Assembly: GCA_965235115.1 (NCBI GenBank)
Contig: OZ249436.1
Span: forward strand, 29,142,001 to 29,206,000
From: Laetmonice hystrix
Taxonomy: Eukaryota
Direction: 5' to 3'
Length of the DNA: 64,000 nucleotides
Position numbers and translations under genes: made by a program. Of this stretch, positions 11,101-64,000 are shown one piece after another (the stretch's first letter is position 1; each line of letters starts with the position of its first letter). The notes beneath the pieces are model-generated. The model made no database searches, had not been told where the DNA came from, and was given only the letters and a program-made list of their open reading frames with translations.

Positions 11101-14100
11101 AAAAGTAGTTTGATATAGATAGGCCTACCATTTTGTCAATCAATTTTGCATGAGTATCCTTGATTGCTTGAGATTACACATGTTCTGCTTCAAGAATGGT
11201 TCATGATGTTCTAGAAGTTAGCCATTTGAAGGTAATCTTATATACTTAATCTTATCAGTGATAAGAAGCGTGAAAGAGGTAACTACCTGTATACAAGAGC
11301 AGAGTATCCAGGATCCATCAATTCTTACACAAAGTAAGTACTTTAACCTATATGTTGATCGTTAAGCACATGGCCACTGACTAAAACTATTTAAAGAAAA
11401 GGTGACTTTTACTTACATATTTCCAGGGTTCTAGCTAGGCCTGTTTTCGCATATCGGCCCGATATGCTGAGTTTTTGCCCCGATACGTGACCCAAATCAC
11501 CGATACACTGTTTCAGGCCTGATATGGGACAAAATCACTTATAAGCTATTTAGCTGAGAAGGATTCCTGCTTTCCACCACCCTCACCTTAGAATGGAAGT
11601 GTGTTTTATTCGCTCAGATTGCACCAAATTACATCCGTTTTTTCCGAAATTTTCTGGGGAAGGCCCCCCCCCCCATACCACCACCACACAAGGGGCAACC
11701 ACTCTCGCACCCTCCCCTGCCCGGCACAATGACGCGCAACATATTCCTAGGCCATTTCCGCTGGTTACCCCCATGCTGACATTTTTTTCTAGCTAGAAGT
11801 TGACTTCATAAAGTTTCCTCATTCTAACTTCAGGGGTTAAAAAGGGGGGGGGAGATATAATGTAATCCCTCTAGATTTGCCTTACATTAGCATGGGAGGC
11901 AGGTATCTCGTTCCATAGGACCCCCATGTTTATATAGAACACAGTCTTTGCAGTTTGAAAATTGTATGGAATTTTATTTCGACCAAGATTTTAGGATGTG
12001 AAAACCCGGCAATTTAAGTCCGGTGAGAATGGTTTGTTTGACAATTTATCATTACATAATACCCAGTCCAGGTTTGGTCCTATAAATAATGGGGGAAAAA
12101 TTGCTTCACAGGGCAGTACGTATCCTGGACGACAGTGGTGAAACCCACACTGAAGCAGCCGGAGAACTGCAAAAACTAGTTGATATGCGTGTTAAATGTT
12201 ACAATAATCTTGCTGCTGCACAACTTAAGGTAAGTGTATTTTAAAAAGTAGACTGTTCAAATGGAGTTAATATGTGACAATTATGAAGTATTATTGCCAA
12301 TAGGGGCGGAACGATACATTTTTTTGGCGATACAATAACATATTGCAATAGAGAGGCCAAAACAAGATTCACCACACAATTCTTTTAAACATAGTAAAGA
12401 AATTATCATTTGTTCATTTTTGTCTTTGAAAGAATTTGTAAATAAATTCATATTGTAGCTACAGATGTTGTTCCTTTGCCATTTCTCTATCAAAAAGAAT
12501 AACATGAACTTGATGTGACACAAAACTCAGACATAATATATCATGAACCACATGTATAATTTTAACATTAGACAAAATGTTCGAATGCACTTCAATGCAG
12601 GAGGATAGCCCATGAGCCCAACCCTGTGCTGGAACATATACTACAATCATTGACCCTTTAACCCCCAAGTTTTTGAGGCCGAGGACTCTCTCCAACGTAG
12701 GCTCCATGGAAAAAATCGCCAAAAAAAGTTTTTTCCACATATCCATCATAATGACATCATCATTAGATTCTGAGGGCTATAAGTCATAAACCGTGCAAGA
12801 TAGACCCATAATTACTATTGAAGACGAATAGGAAGTCATACATGCTCTTTCAATTGACACTGTACTGGAACCCCCAATCGGGAATCGGGGACATCCCAGG
12901 CAGTTACCACAAGAAGTTCTTTCAAAGTTTGAACATACCGTCGTTTGTATTTTCGTTTCTTTTACATTGCAACTCCTCGCATCGAGGTAAAAAACCATCA
13001 GCTTTCGCCGGTCGTGCGGATGACCCGTTCTCTCGCGAGATCTCCTCCCGAGATCAGACTGTGGTGTCGCGGTATATTTAGACTTACTAAAACTAAACCA
13101 AGTCTCTCAGTTGGTTCCAGAACACTCCTCGCCTGGTTTTAGGATAAAATCACTACTAGTGAGTCTTGTGGCTGTAGAAAGTCTCTGTCCACATATTGTC
13201 TATAACAATACTCGTTAACTAAACTACTGTAATCTCTACAGTCCAATGTTAGGAACTAAAATTGTGGACGAGTTATGAATGATAAGGTTATTAATGCAGG
13301 TCTTCGTTTTGAAGCAGCAACACAAGTTCGGTAACAGGGCGAGCGTAGACCCGCTTGACGCCATCCCGCGCTGTCTGAACGCGGACCTTGCGGACCTGTT
13401 TGTCACTGCTGGGTAAAGTTTCAATGACACGTGCGTAGGGCCAGTCATTGCGATGGGTGGTGTCCTTGAGGAGCACAAGGTCACCCACTTGCAGATTGCG
13501 CTGATGGGCCTGCCAGCGCTTTCGCGGTTGGAGTGTAGGCAGGTACTCCTTCCGCCAGCGGCTCCAGAATAATTGAGCAAGATGTTGGACCCGTCGCCAC
13601 TGGCGTCCACAGGCGTTTGCTGCATGAGTGAAGTCTCCTGGGGGTGGCCCTATAGGGCTGGACTTCATGGTAAGTATAGCAGCTGGCGAAAGAACTTCAG
13701 GGCTGTCTGGGTCCGATGACACTGCGACCAGAGGCCGACAGTTGATAATGGCTGACACCTCAGCCATGAATGTGGAAAGAAGTTCATGCGTTAGTGGCAC
13801 CTTCGTTTCTCGGAGAATGGAGTCCAGGATGCGTCTACTCACACCGATAAGGCGCTCCCAAGCACCTCCCATATGCGATGCATGGGGCACGTTGAACTTC
13901 CACTGCATGCTGTTCTGTGTGAGATAGGTCTCTAGAGTAGTCTTGTCCATTTCCCTTAGCGCCTCATTCAGCTCTCTTGAGGCTCCAATGAAATTGGTGC
14001 CACAGTCAGAGTAACAGCATTTCACCTGGCCACGTATGGCCATGAACCGGCGAAGGGCGTTGAGAAATGATGAAGTAGTGAGTTCTTCAATCAATTCAAT

Positions 14101-17100
14101 GTGGACAGCCCTCGTGGCCATGCATGTGAACAACACTGCCCACCGTTTACTATGGCCTCCAGTGCTGCGTGTCCGCCGAGTAGAAACGGTCCAGGGGCCA
14201 AACACATCTAGGCCGACATGGGTGAAGGGTGGTGAAGGCGTGGTCCTTTCTGGTGGGAGATCTGCCATGCGTTGTGTTGTGTGGACTGCTCGCAGCTTCC
14301 GGCAGGTCACACACTTGTTCAAGATGTCAGATATTAAACGTTTTCCTCCCACGATCCAGTAGCCCTGCGTGCGGACAGCTCCGGCCGTAATCTGACGTCC
14401 CTGGTGACGCACATTCTGATGCACGTTGCGCACAATCAAGGTTGCGATGTACTGGCGTTTGTGTAGTAGAATGGGGTGTTTCTCCTTGTCCTCTAGGTCT
14501 GAGAGATCAAGGCGGCCACCAACTCTCATGACTCCGTACTTGTCTAGAAAGGGGCTCAGTTTGTAGAGGGTGCTTCCCTGGGAAACTTTACCATAGCGTT
14601 GCAGATGTTGGATGTCTGACTTGAAGTCGTCCTGTTGTGCTGTCTTGATTATCAGTAACGCGGCACCTTCCATGGTCTCAACTAACCACTCGCTACGGGG
14701 ACTGACATGCAGCTGGTTGGGCGTAGTCTTGGAAGACTTGTAGAGACGAATAAAGTGCATCAGCATGGCGATGGCTTTCACGAGTGAGCTCCAGCTTGAG
14801 AAGCGAGTGAAACGTTTTGAACCAAGATGTTCCTCGGCCTGAGCTGTGACCGTTGCTGCAGTGCGAACTTCAGGGTCATCCTGTGGAGTCACATAGGGTA
14901 GGCTGGTGCACATGTTTACCTGTGAGGCATGCAGAAATCTGGGGCCTTGCAACCATGAAGAGTTCATCAATTCGTGTGCCTTGACGGAGCGTGTTGCCAG
15001 GTCTGCCGGATTGACATCCGTTGAGACGTAGTGCCACTGGGGGGGTGTGCTGGTTTTGCGAATACGTTGCACCCTATTCGCAACATAGACATAGAATCGT
15101 CTGGACTCGTTTTGTACGTAGCCCAGCACCACCTTGCTATCCGTGTAGTAGCTGACTGACGTAAGTTGTATGTCCAACTCGTCAAGAATGGTGTCCGCCA
15201 GTTCCACTGCTAGAACTGCTGCGCACAGTTCCATGCGGGGAATTGTTATGGGCTGAGCTGGTGACAGCTTAGCTTTCCCAGCCACAAACTGGACTGTGAC
15301 CCTGTCTTTGTCGTCGCATAGGCGTAGGTATCCACAGGCTGCGATTGCTTCTGTAGATGCGTCACAGAAGACATGTAGCTCACGATGAGAGTTGAGTGAC
15401 ATGGGATGTTTGCAGTAGGCTCGTGGAACGTAAACCTCGGAGAGGTCCACGAGAGAGGTGCACCACCTTTCCCAGCGCTCCCTGAACTTGTCCGGCAATG
15501 GCTCGTCCCAGTCGAGTGGCTTGCCATCTGGTCCAGCTGTCGTCATCTGGCGCAAGAGAATTTTTCCCTTGATGATCACCGGCGCGGCCAAGCCGAGAGG
15601 GTCGAAAATACCATTTACCAGGGATAGAACGCCTCGCCTTGTGTAGCATTTGTTGATGTCAGGCGCTTTGAAGACGATTTGATCGCTATGAAGATCCCAA
15701 TACACACCAAGTGAGCTCTGTATTGGAAGGGTGTCAGCACTAAGGTCCAGGCTCCGTAGGCTGGGTGCATGTTCAGACTGCGGAAAGTGCGACATTACTT
15801 CCATGCTGTTTGAGGCTATTTTGTGAAGATGAAGGTTGGCTGTTGCCAGCATCTCCCTGGTACGCGTCAGGAGATCTATGGCCTTTTCTGCTGTGGGAAG
15901 ACTTGTCAGCCCATCGTCGACATAGAAGTTGTGCTCCACAAACTGTCGTGCGTCCGCGCCGAACTTGCTTTCATTGAGCTCCGCGGTCTTGCGCAATCCA
16001 TAGGCTGCGATGGCAGGGCTTGGACGATTGCCAAAAACATGGACCTTCATACGGTGCTCACAAACCTCCTTATCAGGGTTGTTGTCCTTGAACCATAGGA
16101 ATCTTAGCCAGTCGCGATGGTCCTCTTGTACGTAGAAGCAGTAGAACATGTGTTCCACATCGGCCATGATCCCAACAGGCTCCTGGCGGAATCTGAGGAG
16201 TACTCCAAAGAGCGAGTTGTACATGTCTGGACCTGTAAGGAGTGCCTGGTTGAGTGATTTTCCATTCCAGGTGGCGCTGCTGTCAAAGACTATACGTAGG
16301 TCTTTAGGTTTGCGGGGGTGGAACACGCCAAAATGAGGAAGGTACCACCGAGGGCGAGACTCTCCAGTGTTGGAACCTGGTTTGATGGCTTCAGCATGAT
16401 CCCTTGCGAGCAGCTTGCCCATGCATTCCACATACCGCTGCTTCAGTGCTGGATTTTTATTGAAGAGCTTGCAAAGACACTTGAGACGATTCATTGCCAT
16501 GCACCTGTTGTTCTCCAGGGAGACGGTGTGTTTGAAGGGTAGAGGGGCGACCCAGTATCCTCTGTCATCCTTGACAAACACATCCCGCATGATTGTCATG
16601 AATTGTCGGTCCTCGTTCGACAGACCAGGTTTATCATCATTCTTTGTTTTGATGAACACATCTCGGCCTATGCTGTCTTCTGTTTTGCAGCTACTGTTAA
16701 TGTCTGGCAGAGTGCCGGATAGCGAGTGTGAGTCAGTGACAGCATCATCGCGTAGAAGGATGCGATTGGAACAAGGAGAACAGAGAGATGGTCTCCCATT
16801 GTCAACAATGTGGGTCCGGTAGACGTCGATTTTGTCAGGCTTGTGCATTCCCTTGAGGCAGATGTCCCCCACAATGACCCAGCCGAGATCAGTACGTTGT
16901 GCCCACGGAGCATTTGCTGGTCCATTACGCGACTCCCTAACTTTAAGAAGTTGTGGTGCATCCCTGCCGATGAGTAGCATGATTTCCGCCTCTGCGCGGT
17001 AAGGTGGGATTTTAGTTGCGATTGGGCGCATGTGACTGTAGATTTTAGCGACATCAGCAGTGGGAATCTCAGACCGGTTGCTAGGGATAACGTTACATTC

Positions 17101-20100
17101 TGTGATTGTCGGAAGCGGCAACTGCGTGGTGCCATCGATGGACTCAATGACCAGATCATTTATACGCCTCCCTAGTGCAGCACTTGAGCCCGCACATGTT
17201 CGCAGTTCATAAGGGATAGGCTCATTGTGACAGTTAAAGTAACTAAAGAGTTTACTGCTGGCGAGGGAACGGTTGGACTGGTCGTCCAGTACTGCATACA
17301 TGGTGAGGACTTTGGTTGGGTTTTTGGCACTGTAGACATTGACTAGACATATTTTGGAGCATGACCTGTTGCTAAACCCACTCTTGGCACAGATCTTGGT
17401 GCAATTGTTGACAATCTTCACTGGCTCCCCGCTGTAGACTTGGCGGGACCCAGATGCTTGAGTTTTACCTTGAGAGCATGGGTGAAGCACCGTGCAGTGC
17501 TCAGTACTGTGGCAGTCAGAACACTGTATGCGCTCGTTGCAGTCGGCAGTTACATGTTGAGTTGATGCTGTACACCTGTTGCAAATTCCCCACTGGGTGA
17601 GAAGTTGCATCCTGGTATCAATGGACTTTGCTTTAAAGGCTCTGCAGTCAGCTAGCAGGTGATTTTTAGTGTTATGGAGCATGCAAGCTTGCCTTGGGTC
17701 CATCAATGACTGCGTGCTGTGTGAACCGTACCTTTCCGGTTTCCTTTGTGAAGTGTCATTAGATGCACTGGGTCTCACGTTCGTCTTGTTGACCCGAACT
17801 GTACCATAGGTTGGTCGTGTGCCTCCAGTTGGACGATACACGTTGCTTGGAGCAAACCGGGGTGCTTTTGTTGTAATTGGAGTGATTTGCAGGCTCAGGT
17901 CATTCCAGATATTGGATAATCGTCTGAGAAAGGCTGCTAACTCAGAAAATGGGGGAAAGCTTCCTCTATACAACTCCTTATACTTGAAGGCTTCGGCCCT
18001 CCAATTGTCCACTACAGGCGGTGGAAGTTTGGCTACGATAGGTTTAATAAACTGAGGCGTATCCAACGCTGCAAGTCCACCAAGAGAACCATCATTTTTA
18101 GCTGCTTCCACTTCCTCGACTATGTCGCTAAATCTCTGCAAGCCTGGCCCATCCCGTGATGCCACAGTAGGTAGTTGCTCCAGCTTCCGGATGAGTGCTT
18201 GCGTTACAGCTTCATCACTACCGAAGCGCTGGTATAGACGTCCCCATGCTTCACTTAGACCTTTGTCCGGATTGGCTATGTATGCCCTACTAAGCCGCTT
18301 CACCATCTGTTGAGCCTCAGACCCCTCAGCCATGTGCTCAGCCATCAGATTTAACTGTTCATCTGAAGAGAGTGGAACATTTTTTATCATGTTGCAGAAG
18401 GATAATCTCCAAATCCTGAAGTCCTCTGCTTTGTCCTCAAATTTAAAGATTTTAGAAGATACCAAGTCTTGCCGTAGTAAATACTCGCCAAGGTTTTTCA
18501 TGGACGAAACCATAGCTGCACTTCCCTCGCCTTCCACTCGTTGCATTTCATGTGGGTAGGTGGGAGAGGAGAGATGTGGAGAGACACAGCCTGCAGTCTG
18601 CCGAGTGTAGGCCTGGTCAGCTGCTGTGCGTGGTTGATGACTGATCCCTGGTGCAGTCATGGGTGGCATAGTTGGTGACGTGGTGTTACCCTGACACGGC
18701 ATGTTTGAGACAGCTGGTTGCATTATAGATGGGTACGCAGATGATGAGAGACGTGGCGAAACTTGGCCTGTAGTCGGCTGAGTGCGAAACTGGTCAGCTG
18801 CTGGGTATGGTTGATGACCAATCCCTGGAGCAGTCATGGGTGGCATGGTCGGCGACATGGCGTTACCCTGACGTGGCATACTTGAGACAACTGAAGGTTG
18901 TGTTATAGGTGGGTACACAGATGATGAGAGACGTGGCGAGACGTGGCCTGCAGTCGGCTGAGTGCGAAACTGGTCAGCTGCTGGGTATGGTTGATGACCA
19001 ATCCCTGGTGCAGTCATGGGTGACATGGTTGGCGACATGGCGTTACCCTGACGTGGCATACTTGAGACAACTGAAGTTTGTGTGGTTGACATACCTGTGG
19101 CAAGTGACAACTTCTGTGGAGATTCATGACATGGGCTGTGATAATGCTCATTCATGGCTGCTGTGGTTGTGAAAACTTCATTATACTGGCTGGGTGCTGA
19201 CTGTCCCATGTCCAGGTCACCCATGTACACTGTGCCCTTTGTGGGTGAGACACCCGTCACTGAGTCTGAAACCTGTCGATCAGCAGGTAAGTCAATGTTT
19301 GGCGTACTGACCTTAATAGGTTGTCCCTGAGCTTCATCAGTACCTGAGAACATTAGGTCCACCTTTTCAGCCGGTGTAGGTAGCTGAGACACGGGCATGC
19401 ACTCATCGACGCCTCCACCTTCAAGGTCACAGAACGCTTCCTCGATAGCCCGGAGCCGTGCGTCTGCTACCGCCGCTTCTTCCTCGAGATGTAACCGCTC
19501 GACCTCTAACTGGCGTGCCGTGGCTTCCAGTTGAGCCTGAGCCAACCTACCTCCGCTGGCTGCTCTAGTTTTGGCTTCCGCAGCCTTAGCTCGAGCTTCC
19601 GCTATGACAGTTGATGACTGTGATGAGCTGGATGAGCCGGTATGCGACCGTGAACAGCGAGATGCTGACATCGTTCCGGGCGATAATGGGTGTGGTTAGC
19701 TGTGCTACACGTGGTATTCACGTGGTTGGATTGTCGGCGCTCGACTCGGCGATGTTTGCTAGGTTTTTTACTGTACTGGAACCCCCAATCGGGAATCGGG
19801 GACATCCCAGGCAGTTACCACAAGAAGTTCTTTCAAAGTTTGAACATACCGTCGTTTGTATTTTCGTTTCTTTTACATTGCAACTCCTCGCATCGAGGTA
19901 AAAAACCATCAGCTTTCGCCGGTCGTGCGGATGACCCGTTCTCTCGCGAGATCTCCTCCCGAGATCAGACTGTGGTGTCGCGGTATATTTAGACTTACTA
20001 AAACTAAACCAAGTCTCTCAGTTGGTTCCAGAACAGACACCAAGATTTATGACGTATGACATAAACAGCACCACGTGGCGGATGGTTTTCCAGCCGGGGT

Positions 20101-21875
20101 ATTTTTTCATAGTCGGAGTGACTGGTATACTGGTGGCTGGGGTTATGGGTTAATCTGACGTGTAGTTTCATCAATTTCTTCAAAATGATTTTTTTTATAA
20201 TACTTAGGGATGTGTATTACGATTCATATCATGCCCCCCTCCACACACACACCCACACACACACGAATCCGTGATACCCGGAATTCTATGGTGAATTGTT
20301 CCGCCCCTAATTACCAAGGCATATGTTACATTGTCTCAATTTACTTGTGGTGAGATATAGATTTTCCGAAAAGGTGACTAGAGAGCAGTGCTTCCAACAG
20401 AATAAACACTGGTTTATCAAACTTTTCACATGGTGACAATCTATGACAGTTATTCTGGTGACATTACTTTTCAGATAGAAATGTATGATGCAGCCATTAA
20501 GTCATGTGAGAGTGTTCTGAGTGTTCAAGCAGACAATGTTAAGGCTCTGTTCCGTAAGGGCAAGTGTCTGGCAGCCAGAGGTGATACACAGGATGCAATC
20601 TCATCCATGAAAAAGGCCCTAACACAAGATCCAGCGAGCAAGGTATGTCGTAGCGAACGAGACTGGTTGGATTTATTTTTCTTGAGCTCAGGATAGCAAA
20701 TATAGAACTTTGCAGTTGTTTTTTTTAAGATTTCGTACTGATCATATATGTCATACTTTGTTATAAGTCTTTATAAATCGTACTCTTTCATTTTAGTAAA
20801 TAATCCCATTTGAGCTAGTACAATTCTAACATGACCTGTTTAATGTGCTTCTCTTTTCTTGAGTCACGTAAAAGGGGGGAATTATTGTCTGGCTAGGCTG
20901 GCAAGCCCCGATTTAGCATGTTCCTTATGATCTCTGCTTGTCGGCTTTGTAGTTCTTTCCCTTAACGTTGACTGTGTGAAATTTATGGTGGTAAAAAGAA
21001 AGATAGGATCTGTTAATAATATTTACTTACCATCGTTTTTCAAGGTTTCTAGTGGAAATGAAAAAAACTGATGTTTTGTTATTGATTATGCATATATCTT
21101 TTTTTCTCTCTCTCTCTCTCTCTCCGTCATTTTAATGACAAAGATTATCCACAATGAGCTTTCTCGGTTGACCAACAAGCACAAGACACAGGAGAAGAAG
21201 GTCCGTGCCCTGTACCAGCGCATGATGGGCCAAGATACAAACTCGGCAAAAAACAAGGCAGCCGAGAAACAGGTACAGTGAGCCCTCAGGTCTGACTGAG
21301 AGAAAAGAGAAATGATACACTTGTGTCACGATTTCAAAGTATCATGCTACATGACAAATGATACGTAACACAATATTTCTCAATGAAACTAAAAACGTAC
21401 TATGCTGAAAATGAATAGGAATAAAATGCATCGGTTTAAATTTCAAACATTTTAATAGCTGAGAGGTGGCAAGCAGTACCTTATATCCTTATAGCCTTCA
21501 GGTTTTTCTTCAAGAATAATTAAGTTTGTCAAGATGTAATTCAGTTATGGAAATCCTTTTCATCCAGATTAGCAAAAATGGAAAAATTTGAAAATTTCAT
21601 AGAAATCTTAGAAATCCACATCCTGGAATTCAGATACACGTACTTTTATTCAGTCATGGTCTCATTCTGTGTCATCTCCGGACTTCTACAGTGGTCCTGT
21701 GCAGTAGGGCTTAGTCGCGAAAAAGTCATGAAATGACTCTTGTAATAACCATGGCAAACGTATAAGTCTCTTTGTGTATTTTCAGGTACCCTCCTGGGTG
21801 TGGGTTACTGGTACAGCTGGTGCTGCTGTTCTGCTGTCAATGGGGATTGCTGCATACCGATACCTTCATGTTTAA
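8198..21875 (+). CDS. FKBP8: Peptidyl-prolyl isomerase FKBP8/FKBP38-like (FKBP domain + TPR + C-terminal membrane anchor), 9 coding exons, ~390 aa
   Basis: Exons 8198-8434, 9540-9687, 10001-10088, 10614-10733, 11259-11333, 12112-12229, 20475-20642, 21144-21272 and 21786-21875. All introns are GT-AG and phases are consistent (1173 nt). FKBP motifs: EWMDVLGNGKLLKKVL, FTLGDGDVIQAFD, YAYG. TPR motifs: KRERGN, KCYNNLAAAQLK, DNVKALFRKGK. The protein then has LYQRMM and a hydrophobic tail WVWVTGTAGAAVLLSMGIAAYRY. Confidence 0.93.
8675..9239. mobile_element. MITE with ~50-bp terminal inverted repeats (PIF/Harbinger-like ends)
   Basis: AGGCCTCCACACACTTGGGCAGTTCACGC.GCGATTTGACGTCGCGTGAAACGC at 8675-8728 has its reverse complement at ~9186-9239. 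The TSD is not clean. Confidence 0.75.
10423..10585. mobile_element. Short piggyBac-like MITE remnant
   Basis: Imperfect TIRs: TTAA|CCACTTGCCGGCAGGA at the left and TCTTCCGGGAAGTGG|TTAC at the right. Confidence 0.45.
12861..13124 (-). repeat. 3' LTR of BEL/Pao element
   Basis: Direct repeat of 19772-20035; I saw no differences by eye. Confidence 0.95.
13291..19671 (-). CDS. BEL/Pao Gag-Pol polyprotein (Gag with Cys/His knuckles, aspartic protease, RT, RNase H, integrase), 2126 aa
   Basis: Uninterrupted ORF with three Gag Cys/His clusters and protease YAVLDDQSNRS. RT motifs are WYLPHFGV, RIVFD and FYVDDGL. Pao RNase H motifs are LHVFCDAS, TIPRMEL and NPADLATR. Integrase motifs are HHCC, GLDVFGP, SDCGTNF and GGAWERLI. 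Confidence 0.97.
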   Translation of the reverse strand: MSASRCSRSHTGSSSSSQSSTVIAEARAKAAEAKTRAASGGRLAQAQLEATARQLEVERLHLEEEAAVADARLRAIEEAFCDLEGGGVDECMPVSQLPTPAEKVDLMFSGTDEAQGQPIKVSTPNIDLPADRQVSDSVTGVSPTKGTVYMGDLDMGQSAPSQYNEVFTTTAAMNEHYHSPCHESPQKLSLATGMSTTQTSVVSSMPRQGNAMSPTMSPMTAPGIGHQPYPAADQFRTQPTAGHVSPRLSSSVYPPITQPSVVSSMPRQGNAMSPTMPPMTAPGIGHQPYPAADQFRTQPTTGQVSPRLSSSAYPSIMQPAVSNMPCQGNTTSPTMPPMTAPGISHQPRTAADQAYTRQTAGCVSPHLSSPTYPHEMQRVEGEGSAAMVSSMKNLGEYLLRQDLVSSKIFKFEDKAEDFRIWRLSFCNMIKNVPLSSDEQLNLMAEHMAEGSEAQQMVKRLSRAYIANPDKGLSEAWGRLYQRFGSDEAVTQALIRKLEQLPTVASRDGPGLQRFSDIVEEVEAAKNDGSLGGLAALDTPQFIKPIVAKLPPPVVDNWRAEAFKYKELYRGSFPPFSELAAFLRRLSNIWNDLSLQITPITTKAPRFAPSNVYRPTGGTRPTYGTVRVNKTNVRPSASNDTSQRKPERYGSHSTQSLMDPRQACMLHNTKNHLLADCRAFKAKSIDTRMQLLTQWGICNRCTASTQHVTADCNERIQCSDCHSTEHCTVLHPCSQGKTQASGSRQVYSGEPVKIVNNCTKICAKSGFSNRSCSKICLVNVYSAKNPTKVLTMYAVLDDQSNRSLASSKLFSYFNCHNEPIPYELRTCAGSSAALGRRINDLVIESIDGTTQLPLPTITECNVIPSNRSEIPTADVAKIYSHMRPIATKIPPYRAEAEIMLLIGRDAPQLLKVRESRNGPANAPWAQRTDLGWVIVGDICLKGMHKPDKIDVYRTHIVDNGRPSLCSPCSNRILLRDDAVTDSHSLSGTLPDINSSCKTEDSIGRDVFIKTKNDDKPGLSNEDRQFMTIMRDVFVKDDRGYWVAPLPFKHTVSLENNRCMAMNRLKCLCKLFNKNPALKQRYVECMGKLLARDHAEAIKPGSNTGESRPRWYLPHFGVFHPRKPKDLRIVFDSSATWNGKSLNQALLTGPDMYNSLFGVLLRFRQEPVGIMADVEHMFYCFYVQEDHRDWLRFLWFKDNNPDKEVCEHRMKVHVFGNRPSPAIAAYGLRKTAELNESKFGADARQFVEHNFYVDDGLTSLPTAEKAIDLLTRTREMLATANLHLHKIASNSMEVMSHFPQSEHAPSLRSLDLSADTLPIQSSLGVYWDLHSDQIVFKAPDINKCYTRRGVLSLVNGIFDPLGLAAPVIIKGKILLRQMTTAGPDGKPLDWDEPLPDKFRERWERWCTSLVDLSEVYVPRAYCKHPMSLNSHRELHVFCDASTEAIAACGYLRLCDDKDRVTVQFVAGKAKLSPAQPITIPRMELCAAVLAVELADTILDELDIQLTSVSYYTDSKVVLGYVQNESRRFYVYVANRVQRIRKTSTPPQWHYVSTDVNPADLATRSVKAHELMNSSWLQGPRFLHASQVNMCTSLPYVTPQDDPEVRTAATVTAQAEEHLGSKRFTRFSSWSSLVKAIAMLMHFIRLYKSSKTTPNQLHVSPRSEWLVETMEGAALLIIKTAQQDDFKSDIQHLQRYGKVSQGSTLYKLSPFLDKYGVMRVGGRLDLSDLEDKEKHPILLHKRQYIATLIVRNVHQNVRHQGRQITAGAVRTQGYWIVGGKRLISDILNKCVTCRKLRAVHTTQRMADLPPERTTPSPPFTHVGLDVFGPWTVSTRRTRSTGGHSKRWAVLFTCMATRAVHIELIEELTTSSFLNALRRFMAIRGQVKCCYSDCGTNFIGASRELNEALREMDKTTLETYLTQNSMQWKFNVPHASHMGGAWERLIGVSRRILDSILRETKVPLTHELLSTFMAEVSAIINCRPLVAVSSDPDSPEVLSPAAILTMKSSPIGPPPGDFTHAANACGRQWRRVQHLAQLFWSRWRKEYLPTLQPRKRWQAHQRNLQVGDLVLLKDTTHRNDWPYARVIETLPSSDKQVRKVRVQTARDGVKRVYARPVTELVLLLQNEDLH
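18541..19080 (-). repeat. Three ~180-bp (60-codon) tandem repeats inside the Gag N-terminal region
   Basis: SSMPRQGNAMSPTM.PMTAPGIGHQPYPAADQFRTQPT.G.VSPRLSSS.YP occurs twice almost exactly, plus a third diverged copy. Confidence 0.9.
19772..20035 (-). repeat. 5' LTR of BEL/Pao element
   Basis: Direct repeat of 12861-13124. Confidence 0.95.
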
Positions 21876-21976
21876 GGGTTCATCGGCTTTAAACTGTGGG
21901 GATTCGTGGACCAGTCTCACAACCTTTGTCCTGCATGAAGGCACATGATCACTTCATTAGATAATATTGATTAATA

Positions 21977-24196: not shown

Positions 24197-26560
24197 TTTT
24201 GGAAAGCAGGTTCCTCGTTGCATGGTTACGGGGGGGGGGGGGGGGGGGGATTTTGCTAAGGAGGACGGGGGTCGGCAGAGTCAATTCAGAGAATTCTTTG
24301 AGGAAAACAAAGAAAAGAATTGTTGCAATGGGGGTAAACCCCCAAACTCCCCACTCCCTGGCTCTTCGCCTGATCTGTGCTGCGTCACATTAGCAAAATA
24401 GGCTATAAATCCCTCAACCTTGGGCGCATGACCTCATTATAGCTACTCCTATTAAGCGGTGTAGTCCTACTGCCTGGTATACATAGGCCTACTATAGGCC
24501 TAAACTAGCAACAACACTTTTAAATATAGAATGCTGCCACTAATTACCTCGGTACTGGAATTTGAGTATCTGAGTATTTGAGTATTTTCGAAATCTGTGG
24601 GCGAAATCGGATATTAATCGACTCGTATATTGTAGGCCAAAATTCCATCATGTGTTTCAGTCGTCATCGGGGATAAAGGGTTCACTACATAGCTAGATTT
24701 ATAACGAGGCATGTCCGGTATCCGCCACATGATGAGAGAGGGGAGGTCCACAACGAATCTGCACTTTTAGCTGTAGCCAATAGTTTAGGCAGAAACATAA
24801 AGAGTATGTAGTGGTGTGCAAGTTTATGCTCATGTTAGCGTTTCACCACGCGGCTGTTTTGGGACACCTCTCTCAATTGTTGTTTCTTTGCCCGCTAACC
24901 ACCAGTGTATTCGATGAGAGTGAGTGGGAAAAGTTGCTCGGTCTGGGCTGCCGTATAGTATTGTATTGTGGTTATTAATTCATGGTAACTTCCCCACGAA
25001 ATTTGTGAGTAGGGGTTAGGGTTAAGGTTAGGGATAGCGATATGTTTTTGGAAGGTCTAGGGACCGGGGTTATGGCTTAGGGATAGTAATAGATAGGCCT
25101 ACTTGGGACCAAAGTTCGCGAGTTTAAAGTTGCCATGAATTATCTACCTGTATTGTATTGGAATTAGGGCCTAACTTGATTCTTAGCTCTTCACTGATGC
25201 CGTATTGTCTATGTAATCATTGCAGATTGTGACCGGTGAGGATTGCACTGGTGACTTTTTTAGTCTTCCTGGAAATAATGACTTGGTGGTGCGTGGTGCA
25301 GCTTCGGTTTGACCGTTCCTCCACTTTGCCGGTTTCTTGCCGGTACAAATCGGCATTTTAAATGCTTAGAGGATCTATATTTAAGCTTATATAGTTAACT
25401 TTGGAAGTCTGTCGATAATGTATTTTAACCGTAATACATACTATACATGTTTAAACTTTCTAAAAATCAAAGTATGACACTGTAGCCTACAGGATTTGAT
25501 AAGGGGGTCCACCTAAACAAAAATGTCCTCGCTACGCTCGGCATGTTTTGATTGTTACTGTACGAATGCATCTTCATAAAAAAAAAAGTGATGTAAGGCG
25601 GAGAAAGAGAAATTCCCGGTTTGTGGTACGCGCGCGCGTCACTTCAGACGGCGCGCATCAGTGCTTTTTTTTCTTGACCTCAGCATGGATGACTGTGTGA
25701 ATTGTGCTGCCACCTAGCGGTAAAGCTTGAAACTAACCATTGTTGTAATGGATTATTTCATTAACACTGCAACGGAATTGTGTTACAAGTATTGAAAGCG
25801 ATGACAGCAAAGGTCATGGTCCTTGTTTATGAGTTCATTTTACGTGATAATTCTTATTAGGCTTACCGTTTTAGCCAGCTGTCGCCCAAATAAAAAAATC
25901 TTTAAAAAAAACAGCATCACCGCAACAGTTTTATAATGTTCTTCGGACCAGAAACCGGGAATCATGCATACGAAGACAAATGGATGTAAAATTTCGACAA
26001 GTGCAGAAAATACTGAAGAATCCTTCTACCTCTTTATATATGACCACATGGTTTTGGGGCAGCAGATCACAGATAATATCGTGTTCTTGACATGAGAATA
26101 ACAACAACAAAAGAGAAAAACGGGCAAAAGACGATCACTTTTCTCAATTCAATGGAAAATATCCGATTTCGCCCACAGATTTCGAAAAGACTCAAATACT
26201 CAGATACTCAAATCCTAGTACCGAGGTAATTAGTGGCAGCATTCTATATTTAAAAGTGTTGTTGCTAGTTTAGGCCTATAGTAGGCCTATATGTGCAGGC
26301 AGTTGGGCTACACCGCTTAATAGGAGTATCTATATGAGGTCATGTGCCCCAGGTTGAGGGATTTATAGCCTATTTTGCTAATGTGACGCAGCACAGATCA
26401 GGCGAAGAGCCAGGGAGTGGGGAGTTTGGGGGTTTACCCCTATTGCAACAGATCTTTCCTTTGTTTTCCTCACAGAATTCTCTGAATTGACTGCCGACCC
26501 CCATCCTCCTTAGCAAAATTTCCCCCCGTAACCATGCAACGAGGAGCCCGCTTTCCAAAA
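24197..26560. repeat. Large inverted repeat: ~400-bp arms (24197-24614 and ~26159-26560) around a ~1.5-kb spacer
   Basis: TTTTGGAAAGCAGGTTCCTCGTTGCATGGTTACGGG...CTGTGGGCGAAATCGGATATT is mirrored on the opposite strand. The ORF track shows near-identical spurious peptides on both strands. Confidence 0.88.
25704..25720 (-). promoter_or_regulatory. CTCF-like motif
   Basis: The minus strand reads CCGCTAGGTGGCAGCAC, a close match to the extended CTCF consensus. Confidence 0.55.
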
Positions 26561-27153: not shown

Positions 27154-27679
27154 CGTATAGGCTACAACACAGTTAAAACAAAATTAGATCTACCCCCCCC
27201 CCCCCAAAGACCCGTTAAATTTATCTCCGCCGGTAGGTCACAAGGGCCCAGTTCCTAAACACTTCTCAGATGCTTAAGTTTGGCTGGTCTGCTTTGACCA
27301 GCCAATCAGAAGCGTTACCTTAAGCTGAACCTTAAGCAAGATTTCAAGTTTTTAGGAACTGTGCCCTGTCTTTTAATAGGCCTATTAGGCCCCTATTTGT
27401 AACACATTTTCTTTACGTTTTCAGGGGACCCATTTTCCCGCCAACAAATACAGGCCTAGATGACTACGGCATAAATTGTGCCACATTAATTTGCTGAATT
27501 CCGAAAAACGCGAAGCTAAAGCTGTCCGAGTTTTGTAGTCCTACATACATTTGACTAATTATTGAAATCTTAACTAAAAGGCCGCCGTCCTATCCTCTTG
27601 AATCGGTTCGCGCGGAAACTGTAAAGTCTGGAAACCAAATAATAACCGATCCCTCCAAATATAGGTCAAGCACCTGCTC

Positions 27680-27692
27680 CCACCAGAGGGCG
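27680..27692 (+). promoter_or_regulatory. CTCF-like motif in the GC-richer putative promoter region of the zinc-finger locus
   Basis: CCACCAGAGGGCG matches the CTCF core. Confidence 0.5.
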
Positions 27693-28939
27693 TGCTTGAA
27701 GAGGGAAGCGGCGCTGCTTTGATGGAAGAAGAACGGTCACCAGTCTCCTTAATATTTGACGATTTTACGTCACTGGTACGTATAATTTACTAGATCTGCT
27801 GCTAAGCGACGCCTAACTGACCAGAGATACTGGAGGTATCCAGTTGAGAATTGAAAAACGCAGAAATATGTTTATATCTGCGATTGAAATATGGGCCGGT
27901 TGTGTTCGAGGGGTTTGGGCCTCGCACAATGGCGGCGGAGGGCCGTGCGCAAAGTAATTAACATATTCTATATGCGGGTCCGCCACTTTCGTACTAACGG
28001 TTGGTTCGCTATCCATGGACCGGTTGTGGTCGACCCGAGTTGTATGGTAGCCGGGGCGTTCGCCTAAAACGAAAAGTATAAGGGTGCTGGGTGCTCGACG
28101 TGGTAAGGATAATATAGTTTTTCCAAGGTGTGAGGGGAATTTATACATGTAGCCTAGTCTATATTATGAGCACCGAGATTGCACTCCAAAAATTATGAAC
28201 ATAAATTTGCATGAAATATGTCTGCTGGCCAAGAAAAAAAAAACCCCGCTTTTGGAACGGGTTGGCGGCCATTTGCTCATATATATCGGCATCAATAAGA
28301 CGGATGATGCTATCTTAGTATTTGAAGAAATGTCCGTTATTCTTGGTGACTCTAGTATAGAAGAGGTATACATTTTATAGTACCGTGATTACTGGAGAAT
28401 ATGTGATGTGGAAGTCGCCATAAATAGGCATTAAGACCAGCGTCCTTTGTCATACCAAAATGGCGGGAAGGTGGAGAGGGGACGCGGACCGGGGACGCCA
28501 GTTCCCGCCGGCGTCGGTGAAGTGGCGTTGATACCAATCATGATTCAGATTGCAGACGTGTAGGCCTTTACCGTTTACGGTAATGAAGTATTCCACTGGC
28601 AAGTGTAGTAATACTTAGACAGTCTCTGTTGAACCACGGGTTTATTTTTAGAGCTAATTATTAAAACCCTAGACGGTAGATTTAGTTGCTTCTCCGCTTC
28701 GCTCCTGACTAGTAGTAGGGTTGATTCATTAGCATTTAAACAAATGATGGAAGCAGATTTCGTGGTAGGCTTCCATTTCCGATTTTTAAAAACAGGGTTC
28801 ACAGCCAACCTGGAAAACCTGGAAAATGACTTCGTCTTTTGGTATACAACTTGGTATACATCCCTAACAATTACTTTTAATTATCTATTAAAAAGGGGAG
28901 GAAAGGATGGCTGTGAGGGGAGAAGGGAGGCCATCGTGT

Positions 28940-29116
28940 CAGGGGCGGATCTAGGGTCTATTTTCAGGGGGGGTCCGAGGGGGGTCCAGCATAAAAAGGG
29001 CAGATCGAGGGGGGTCCGTTGTAAATCAATAAGGCATTTTGGTTATAAAAAATTAAATTTGGCTAATCCGAGGGGGGGTCCGGACGTCGCCGACACCCCC
29101 CCTGGATCCGCCACTG
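28940..29116. mobile_element. Short MITE
   Basis: TIRs CAGGGGCGGATCTAGG and CCTGGATCCGCCACTG, with CGTGT on both flanks. Confidence 0.6.
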
Positions 29117-30070
29117 CGTGTTAAACTTACATAATGCATGTTTATGCTTGCAATTACGATTTATTGAAGATGTTTCAAGCAAGAAATAGGTCAGAATGAT
29201 GATCCTAGAATTTTTAACTTCCATCAGAGAAAAGTCAGGGAATTTTTTCCCAATGAAATGCTGGGAACCCTGAAAAAGTAAAAGTATTGCTGTAAGTAAA
29301 GTCTAACATGCAGTTGTTTGCTGGCTTATGTGGGCAGGATGAAAAAAACAATTTTTCTGTGTGTTCTGACTGGCACATATATCGGGAAGTTCGGCAGGAA
29401 TAAAAAAAAAATTTTAAATTCCAATTCTATTTTTTTCTACTTTTGCGGACCCGTAACCCAAACAATCAAAAAGTGTAAGTTATAGCGAAGGAAAGTCATT
29501 CGGAGACCACTTCATACATGATTTAGAACAAAGGACCTGGGTTATTGGTAAGTTAACCAGAAAGTCATGCCCACTTGCCAAGTGCCACTCAGAGTAACTC
29601 TCTCATCTTTGCATAATGCTAAAAAAGTCATAGTCTGCAGTGAAGCAGAGATCTGACTGTGGCTTGACCAGTCTTTAGAAGACCTGGATCAAAGTTGACT
29701 TGACCGGTTGACAAAAAAAGTCGCTGAAGATATTGATTACCACAACTACTGATCAAAATTGATTTTGATTAGCAGTTTGAAGATTTTGATTAGTACAAGG
29801 GCATAGACAAGGGGGGATTACAGGAGCACCAATTAACAAGGACTGACTGTACCATATATTAGCGGTTGTCGCTAATCAAAATTTTCAAAACAAAATGTGT
29901 GCTGTGCACCAAACTCTTTTTACCTGCATTTTAATAAATGATTTTATTGTTATTTTCAGGTGCTAATTGGATGTCTGAGTGACCTTTGCACTTGCCATTT
30001 TTAAGTCGGAAAGAAGTTGGGCAGCAACCATCTGAAGTATTTATATAGTTTTTAAAAAAATCGAGTCAAG

Positions 30071-64000
<33,930 letters not shown>

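Follow-up and report, generated by a model that had tools for sequence, protein, structure and literature searches.

The window analysed here (64,000 nt of the Laetmonice hystrix assembly GCA_965235115.1; contig OZ249436.1, called C1 below, positions 29142001-29206000) very probably holds the single constant coding exon of one gene together with the first 40 of its 87 alternative terminal exons, one of these cassettes being used per mRNA. Judged from the sequence, the donor at 30865 would be joined in phase 0 to a single cassette acceptor in each mRNA, and the products would have the N-terminal domain and low-complexity region in common but differ in their terminal pair of C2H2 fingers. Joining would occur mostly in cis from one upstream promoter, with unused downstream cassettes left in the 3′ UTR or removed by polyadenylation. 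The products are presumably transcription factors, DNA binding by the cassettes being expected from their membership of the C2H2/TGEKP family. Since two fingers read only ~6 bp, we propose that the constant domain may oligomerise or recruit cofactors, as the BTB domain does in lola. All junction evidence comes from related species and from further loci of the same family; the junctions in L. hystrix itself, and the use of all 87 cassettes, are predicted.

The constant exon and its surroundings comprise the following features:

29960..30865 (+), constant exon, with 111 nt of 5′ UTR and 265 codons; acceptor, ATG and donor read in the sequence
30071..30244 (+), unnamed conserved N-terminal domain of ~58 aa, with a predicted helix (3-23) and beta-hairpin (29-41/44-55)
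30245..30865 (+), low-complexity acidic/Ser/Gln region with IKQE and IKLE motifs
30863..30871 (+), splice donor TCG|GTAGGT, phase 0, at a position common to paralogs and homologs
30866..35095 (+), intron up to the first cassette, 4.2 kb, CpG-poor

The acceptor (TTTTCAG before 29960) implies an upstream non-coding first exon and promoter. A conserved PGCSSW motif lies just 5′ of the donor, and a frame read through the donor meets a stop ten codons on. At the DNA level the exon is single-copy in the genome (627 Mb in 35 contigs were searched). The original prediction had described an exon with its start codon at 30071, a phase-0 donor at 30865 and neither a DNA-binding nor a BTB domain. Reading of the sequence agrees on the start codon, the donor and the lack of any zinc finger within the exon, and the 265-aa constant region matches no Pfam family at E <= 1, BTB included.

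Downstream, 87 intact two-finger cassettes lie on the same strand over 76 kb, from 35096 to extended position 111,111 (C1:29253111; extended positions continue the window numbering past 64,000), the end having been located in 200 kb fetched 3′ of the window. A two-finger regex found 86, and a tblastn sweep with all 86 cores added one that the regex had missed, intact, at extended position 107806; two weak single tblastn hits were left out of the count. The original prediction had given 40 or more. Those starting in the window are listed from acceptor to stop, all cassettes having been found by regex:

35096..35422 (+), cassette 1
35516..35797 (+), cassette 2
36809..37093 (+), cassette 3
37583..38038 (+), cassette 4
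39154..39471 (+), cassette 5
40061..40447 (+), cassette 6; acceptor 40097 likelier by likeness to cassette 5
40681..41034 (+), cassette 7
41283..41705 (+), cassette 8
41760..42017 (+), cassette 9
42160..42450 (+), cassette 10
42741..42902 (+), broken relic cassette, finger 2 and linker only; tblastn and read runs
43317..43562 (+), cassette 11
43685..43918 (+), cassette 12
44319..44609 (+), cassette 13
44813..45184 (+), cassette 14
45235..45495 (+), cassette 15
45751..46008 (+), cassette 16
46076..46387 (+), cassette 17 (TAG acceptor)
47145..47447 (+), cassette 18
48104..48382 (+), cassette 19
48829..49146 (+), cassette 20
49279..49521 (+), cassette 21
49846..50082 (+), cassette 22
50297..50530 (+), cassette 23
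51526..51792 (+), cassette 24
51927..52166 (+), cassette 25
52953..53192 (+), cassette 26
53553..53786 (+), cassette 27
55011..55244 (+), cassette 28
55882..56121 (+), cassette 29
56621..56896 (+), cassette 30
57395..57643 (+), cassette 31
58001..58237 (+), cassette 32
59071..59322 (+), cassette 33
59404..59670 (+), cassette 34
61257..61520 (+), cassette 35
62427..62675 (+), cassette 36
62902..63126 (+), cassette 37
63232..63444 (+), cassette 38
63546..63776 (+), cassette 39
63841..64000 (+), cassette 40, running past the end of the window to its stop at extended position 64113

The regex and a six-frame scan thus recover the predicted 40 same-strand cassettes from 35096, 39 of them complete, with no finger pair on the minus strand of the window; 47 more lie beyond it. 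Each counted cassette encodes, as had been described, two C2H2 fingers joined by a 7-residue TGEKP-type linker and then a stop (Pfam finds zf-C2H2 twice in cassette 1), with finger 1 insertions or a deletion in a few (e.g. 2, 6, 32, 38 and 39). The claim that none is broken holds for the 40 counted but not for the relic at 42741-42902. Gaps between cassettes go down to 48 nt, many being under 150 nt and some reaching 2-4 kb, and the predicted joined products measure 330-416 aa.

Positions 29000-48900 are evenly covered by three genomic-looking runs from one sample, and the part of the array within them is therefore no assembly artefact. These runs behave as genomic DNA, with no splice joints over that interval. 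No RNA data set was listed as matching 29900-36000, a weak query in that most of it is intron. In each of the three runs, contigs contain a joint from 42693 to 42989, at part of the depth, that skips 295 nt with the relic cassette; in this one sample it is possibly a deletion allele.

For each cassette, every AG in the 260 nt before finger 1 was given a simple pyrimidine/CAG score that was blind to frame. In 78/86 cassettes the AG that scored best kept phase 0 relative to the fingers (p 1.3e-28 by a binomial test, 1/3 being expected), bearing out the claim that the acceptors share the finger frame, and in 75/86 it was also inside the open frame. The mean in-frame acceptor score was 6.9, against 4.8 +/- 1.5 in 2000 random windows. 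The chosen in-frame acceptors nearly all read TTNCAG, with 85/86 at each of -6, -5 and -3, letters that the score rewards.

This phase agreement bears on whether each cassette is instead a small finger gene of its own, with a separate promoter and either a non-coding first exon or a spliced leader, the constant exon joining no cassette beyond the first or second. If the first exons were non-coding, frame would not matter, yet 78 acceptors are in phase. An ATG stands exactly at the acceptor in 29/86 cassettes and some Met precedes finger 1 in 61/86, so many could in principle be translated alone, and most sampled relatives have one finger end. Against this, 25/86 have no Met between acceptor and finger 1 (16/86 have none in the whole upstream open frame); these need an upstream phase-0 coding exon, and only the constant exon offers one. 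The array shows no enrichment of strong donors (15 sense versus 9 antisense over 80 kb), the gaps go down to 48 nt, and 56/56 non-finger cassettes of the family (below) lie behind a constant exon. Independent genes are accordingly highly improbable. The original prediction had leaned on most cassettes having no ATG at the acceptor. That is so, although 11/40 in the window have one (12 if cassette 6 starts at 40097), and with some Met before finger 1 in 30/40 the start-codon argument is decisive for only 10/40 (25/86 of the array). The hexamers AATAAA or ATTAAA occur in 47/85 gaps only, with a strand bias that is weak or absent (63 vs 42; 32 vs 45), so there is no clear sign that each cassette has its own poly(A) site.

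The cassette starts are themselves biased: T stands at +2 in 71/86 and A or G nearly always at +1, making the first residue Met, Val or Ile. This bias, absent from the neighbouring array behind C1:29427022, could permit finger-only products if the coding exon were skipped.

The Cys and His residues are invariant in the 78 canonical cores, and the helix positions are the most variable; the residue combinations at the base-contact positions -1/2/3/6 are distinct in 86/86. Between cassettes the median core identity is 49%, with saturation at synonymous sites (median pS 0.88). Over the nine disjoint closest pairs (pS <= 0.45; Nei-Gojobori), dN/dS is 0.34, with 0.70 at contact positions and 0.28 outside them. 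The fingers are under purifying selection, and the base-contact positions change faster. Of 11 allele differences falling in cassettes, nine change a residue, two are silent and none creates a stop (from 14 of 40 differences listed, with 33 further). Similarity declines with distance along the array and 49/86 best hits are at most three places away, from which we conclude that the array grew by local tandem duplication.

These data weigh against an array that is mostly a silent reservoir, or whose choice is made by somatic DNA deletion that moves a distal cassette up to the constant exon, or by stepwise re-splicing along the array, a group of readings that we consider very unlikely. The relic cassette and the possible deletion allele do indicate turnover, and 22/86 cassettes start with GT, which could rebuild a donor after joining. 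A strong donor match, however, is present in only one of those 22 (cassette 4), a silent reservoir sits badly with 86 intact frames at such divergence and such a dN/dS, and DNA rearrangement with the three runs, in which no listed joint over 29000-48900 links a cassette to the constant exon or to the intron behind it (one sample, in contigs that drop rare variants).

With alternative terminal exons of one gene as the preferred reading, a sub-mode is that internal promoters and trans-splicing to the constant exon give the same products, which is possible but on the whole rather doubtful. To reach cassette 87 in cis, splicing must pass 86 good acceptors over 80 kb, and some inter-cassette gaps, at 2-4 kb, are wide. 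According to the accessible text of one source (PMC13490949), every one of the 30+ mod(mdg4) isoforms arises by trans-splicing, and lola uses both cis and trans joining. Against it, cassettes always lie downstream on the strand of the constant exon (86/86 here, 56/56 for the ~220-aa domain described below), an arrangement that cis joining requires and trans does not, and many gaps are under 150 nt. Strand and order favour joining in cis.

Beyond the original prediction, the analysis brought out a conserved domain in the constant exon itself, a family of such loci, and a non-finger domain in sister arrays. A search with the N-terminal domain gave 1185 cluster representatives at E <= 0.001, the sole named homolog being from the annelid Ridgeia piscesae, which makes an annelid host probable, and the domain occurs in at least 39 places in the genome, at least 31 of them on contig C1. 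The N-terminal part of five homologs matched no Pfam family at E <= 0.1. An AlphaFold2 model of 60 residues consists of a helix plus a beta-hairpin; among five models the best reached pLDDT 83 and the rest 53-63. Foldseek gave no match to it at E <= 0.001; the best fold match, a pseudopilin (Z 4.1, rmsd 2.5, 53 aligned), and MADS-box chains (Z 3.3-3.7) are in the range of common arrangements. A PDB sequence search returned just two rows at E ~2, and an Atlas search was blank. Two copies folded together to look for self-association, with the alignment unused, scored 0.02, which points neither way. Beyond residue 60, a [VIL]KxE motif, the SUMO consensus, is present in 318/365 homologs, a count that includes many near-identical rows and is without a shuffle control.

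Evidence on the junction comes from these relatives. Among the homologs fetched, 340/365 have no finger and 25/365 are finger-bearing; most are genomic ORFs that end shortly past the donor. At the junction, [DE]x-V-[GSR], as a translated donor would give, stands in 22/25 of the ORFs of the closest homologs. Both read-through and finger-bearing forms, diverging exactly at the junction, were found in nine of 30 protein clusters checked. Eight of these nine have a single finger end. In the ninth, two proteins (P0318 and P0369, on contigs of 1024 and 1137 nt) share 222/223 constant residues and then continue into different finger exons, while a third (P0368) reads into the intron after residue 223; P0318 and P0369 could be two recent gene copies. 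In contig L059 the constant region runs directly into a finger exon; further on come an acceptor that was not used and another cassette homologous to the first. The finger-bearing contigs are probably RNA, judging by their intron-less joins. The predicted reading as alternative terminal exons thus gains support from the phase statistics, the shared donor position, the spliced and read-through forms of relatives, and the relative with two ends. Many-ended loci are likely to be under-represented in such data because unitig-type contigs break at branch points. The metagenome loci (80 kept of 203) are mostly short with at most two cassettes each, so no large array is visible in another species.

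Several observations on the relatives stand apart from the junction. Three proteins on contigs of 61-566 kb (P0255, P0271 and P0272) have the constant region of the family and HTH_psq (PF05225) in one genomic ORF, perhaps a retrocopy or a fusion; HTH_psq is a domain type also used by some Tramtrack-group BTB proteins. Dozens of closely alike constant-region proteins (P0171-P0265), several on equal-sized contigs, resemble the Ridgeia protein, which suggests that in this lineage it was the constant exon that multiplied. A metagenome contig (L081:12727-14397) has a tandem of two near-identical single-finger cassettes 3′ of a constant exon, possibly an array at its birth. One single-finger cassette of the mixed array behind C1:29327427, described below (L024:7140-7754), is closely like the lone finger exon behind the constant exon in metagenome contigs L035, L037, L040, L042, L045, L046, L048, L052 and L055-L057, a hint that this is an old, conserved end.

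Within the L. hystrix genome, the 87-cassette locus is the largest member seen of a multi-locus family. The 10 best paralogous exons, picked by eye, all have a phase-0 NNG|GT donor near the frame end (GTR in 9/10), and same-strand cassettes lie 3′ of each of the six among them that were read. The array behind C1:29427022 has 30 cassettes in the part read, with a phase-0 acceptor in 27/29; 10-kb samples behind four other paralogs hold 5, 4, 2 and 3 cassettes, some of them three-fingered. In a sister array, several cassette frames open directly after an in-frame TAG acceptor. Two constant exon pairs are divergent and a few kb apart (C1:47052068 (-)/C1:47055023 (+) and C1:20789170 (-)/C1:20797294 (+)), the former with its own cassettes behind each exon.

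The array behind C1:29327427 (C1:29332711-29364598, +) is mixed, with 8-9 single fingers, two finger pairs and seven copies of a ~220-aa domain; 16/18 acceptors are in phase 0. This domain has 56 matches in the genome, 56/56 of them on the strand of a constant exon and 1.7-51 kb 3′ of it, with 10 such exons involved, where the strand-space within 60 kb downstream of a constant exon is 0.2%; 17 lie behind C1:19946373 and 17 behind C1:46642311. In contig L063 it is in one frame with the N-terminal domain. It has no Pfam match under E 0.1 and no PDB sequence match, and an Atlas search gave leads under 0.9 only. Its model has a ferredoxin/RRM-like alpha-beta fold. Rep origin-binding domains are among the structures that resemble the model (Z 5.7-6.7, rmsd 2.9-4.5, 95-163 aligned), a likeness that may serve as a lead only, the best match overall being an unrelated enzyme (Z 7.6).

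The idea that most TGEKP linkers in the genome belong to constant-exon arrays was rejected. Among 72 that make up three codon-defined subsets of 1806 strict matches and were assigned by eye, only 19 were behind a constant exon and 53 were elsewhere; on contig C1 the figure was 19/20. Another kind of finger repeat is seen at C19:12096759-12128545 (-), where nine near-identical finger-linker matches lie ~3 kb apart with no constant exon listed nearby.

The locus appears to work like lola and mod(mdg4), though by sequence it is not a BTB gene. As in lola, there is one constant N-terminal region and there are many alternative 3′ exons, mostly with C2H2 fingers of their own: a constant region with one donor is followed by same-strand, one-phase terminal exons, each with a stop, that are putatively distinct DNA-binding modules. 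Lola has 20 protein isoforms, 17 with a unique finger motif, in the part of the source available (bioRxiv 10.1101/132027). The differences are that Pfam detects no BTB here, that there is one coding constant exon, that there are 87 cassettes and not 20, and that many paralogous loci bear arrays. Mod(mdg4) has a constant front and 30+ variable ends, most with FLYWCH domains, as far as the accessible text describes it (PMC11426971); sister loci here likewise carry more than one kind of end domain, but the ends are C2H2 pairs, single fingers and the unnamed ~220-aa domain. The same accessible text reports that Tramtrack-type BTB was not found outside arthropods in a search that included annelids and molluscs.

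Clustered protocadherins and UGT1A also combine tandem variable exons with one constant part, the variable 5′ exons being chosen by promoter and the exons at the 3′ end being constant; their layout is the mirror image of the array here. In the KRAB and ZAD families, rapidly diversifying C2H2 fingers are attached to a small N-terminal domain that is restricted to one lineage. FiNZ has the same arrangement, in the accessible part of its description (PMC10547256). KRAB, ZAD and FiNZ families duplicate whole genes with long finger arrays, whereas here the terminal exon alone is duplicated and each product has two fingers; a KRAB, ZAD or SCAN assignment is also at odds with a constant region without Pfam match and with two fingers followed by a stop. 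The metazoan survey in the accessible text of that paper counted only ORFs with at least five fingers (PMC10547256), and it would therefore be blind to two-finger cassettes.

No description of such a locus was found in open-access full text, with supplements and subscription papers outside that scope; RNA-supported annotations of related genomes may list such isoforms unremarked. We lean, with little better than even confidence, towards the view that an undescribed family of loci exists in annelids, perhaps in other lophotrochozoans too, in which the lola design evolved independently. An unnamed constant oligomerisation domain would be combined with interchangeable terminal exons, 87 here and some hundreds over ~40 loci, that supply two-finger, one-finger or ~220-aa nucleic-acid-binding-like ends. 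Exon choice cell by cell and the mixing of isoforms through the shared domain would then amount to a combinatorial code for DNA recognition, one overlooked by gene annotation and by surveys of fingers. The design of a constant front with a variable DNA-binding end has so far been tied to the arthropod Tramtrack-type BTB domain. If the view is true, it evolved at least twice, here on an unrelated unnamed domain, with four times the ends of lola and at many loci, and transcription-factor counts for these animals are wrong, because ORF callers go no further than the donor and ORFs with two fingers are passed over in finger surveys. The locus offers a compact test bed for how the spliceosome chooses among 87 competing last exons, and the family offers two conserved unnamed domains for characterisation.

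Upstream of the locus, the final exons of a gene for a TPR protein whose C-terminal tail is hydrophobic lie at window 20477-21876 (+), 8 kb from the constant exon; by their sequence they are consistent with the FKBP8 gene named in the original prediction. Upstream of these exons, an unbroken 2134-codon frame at 13291-19695 (-) has matching flanks (12777-13106 and 19718-20017), and presumably represents a Bel/Pao-type LTR retrotransposon. Two segments (~24200-24620 and ~26160-26560) appear by eye to be mutual reverse complements and may form a foldback or MITE-type element. The patches rich in CpG at 25500 and 27500-28500 are candidate promoter sites for the gene of the constant exon.
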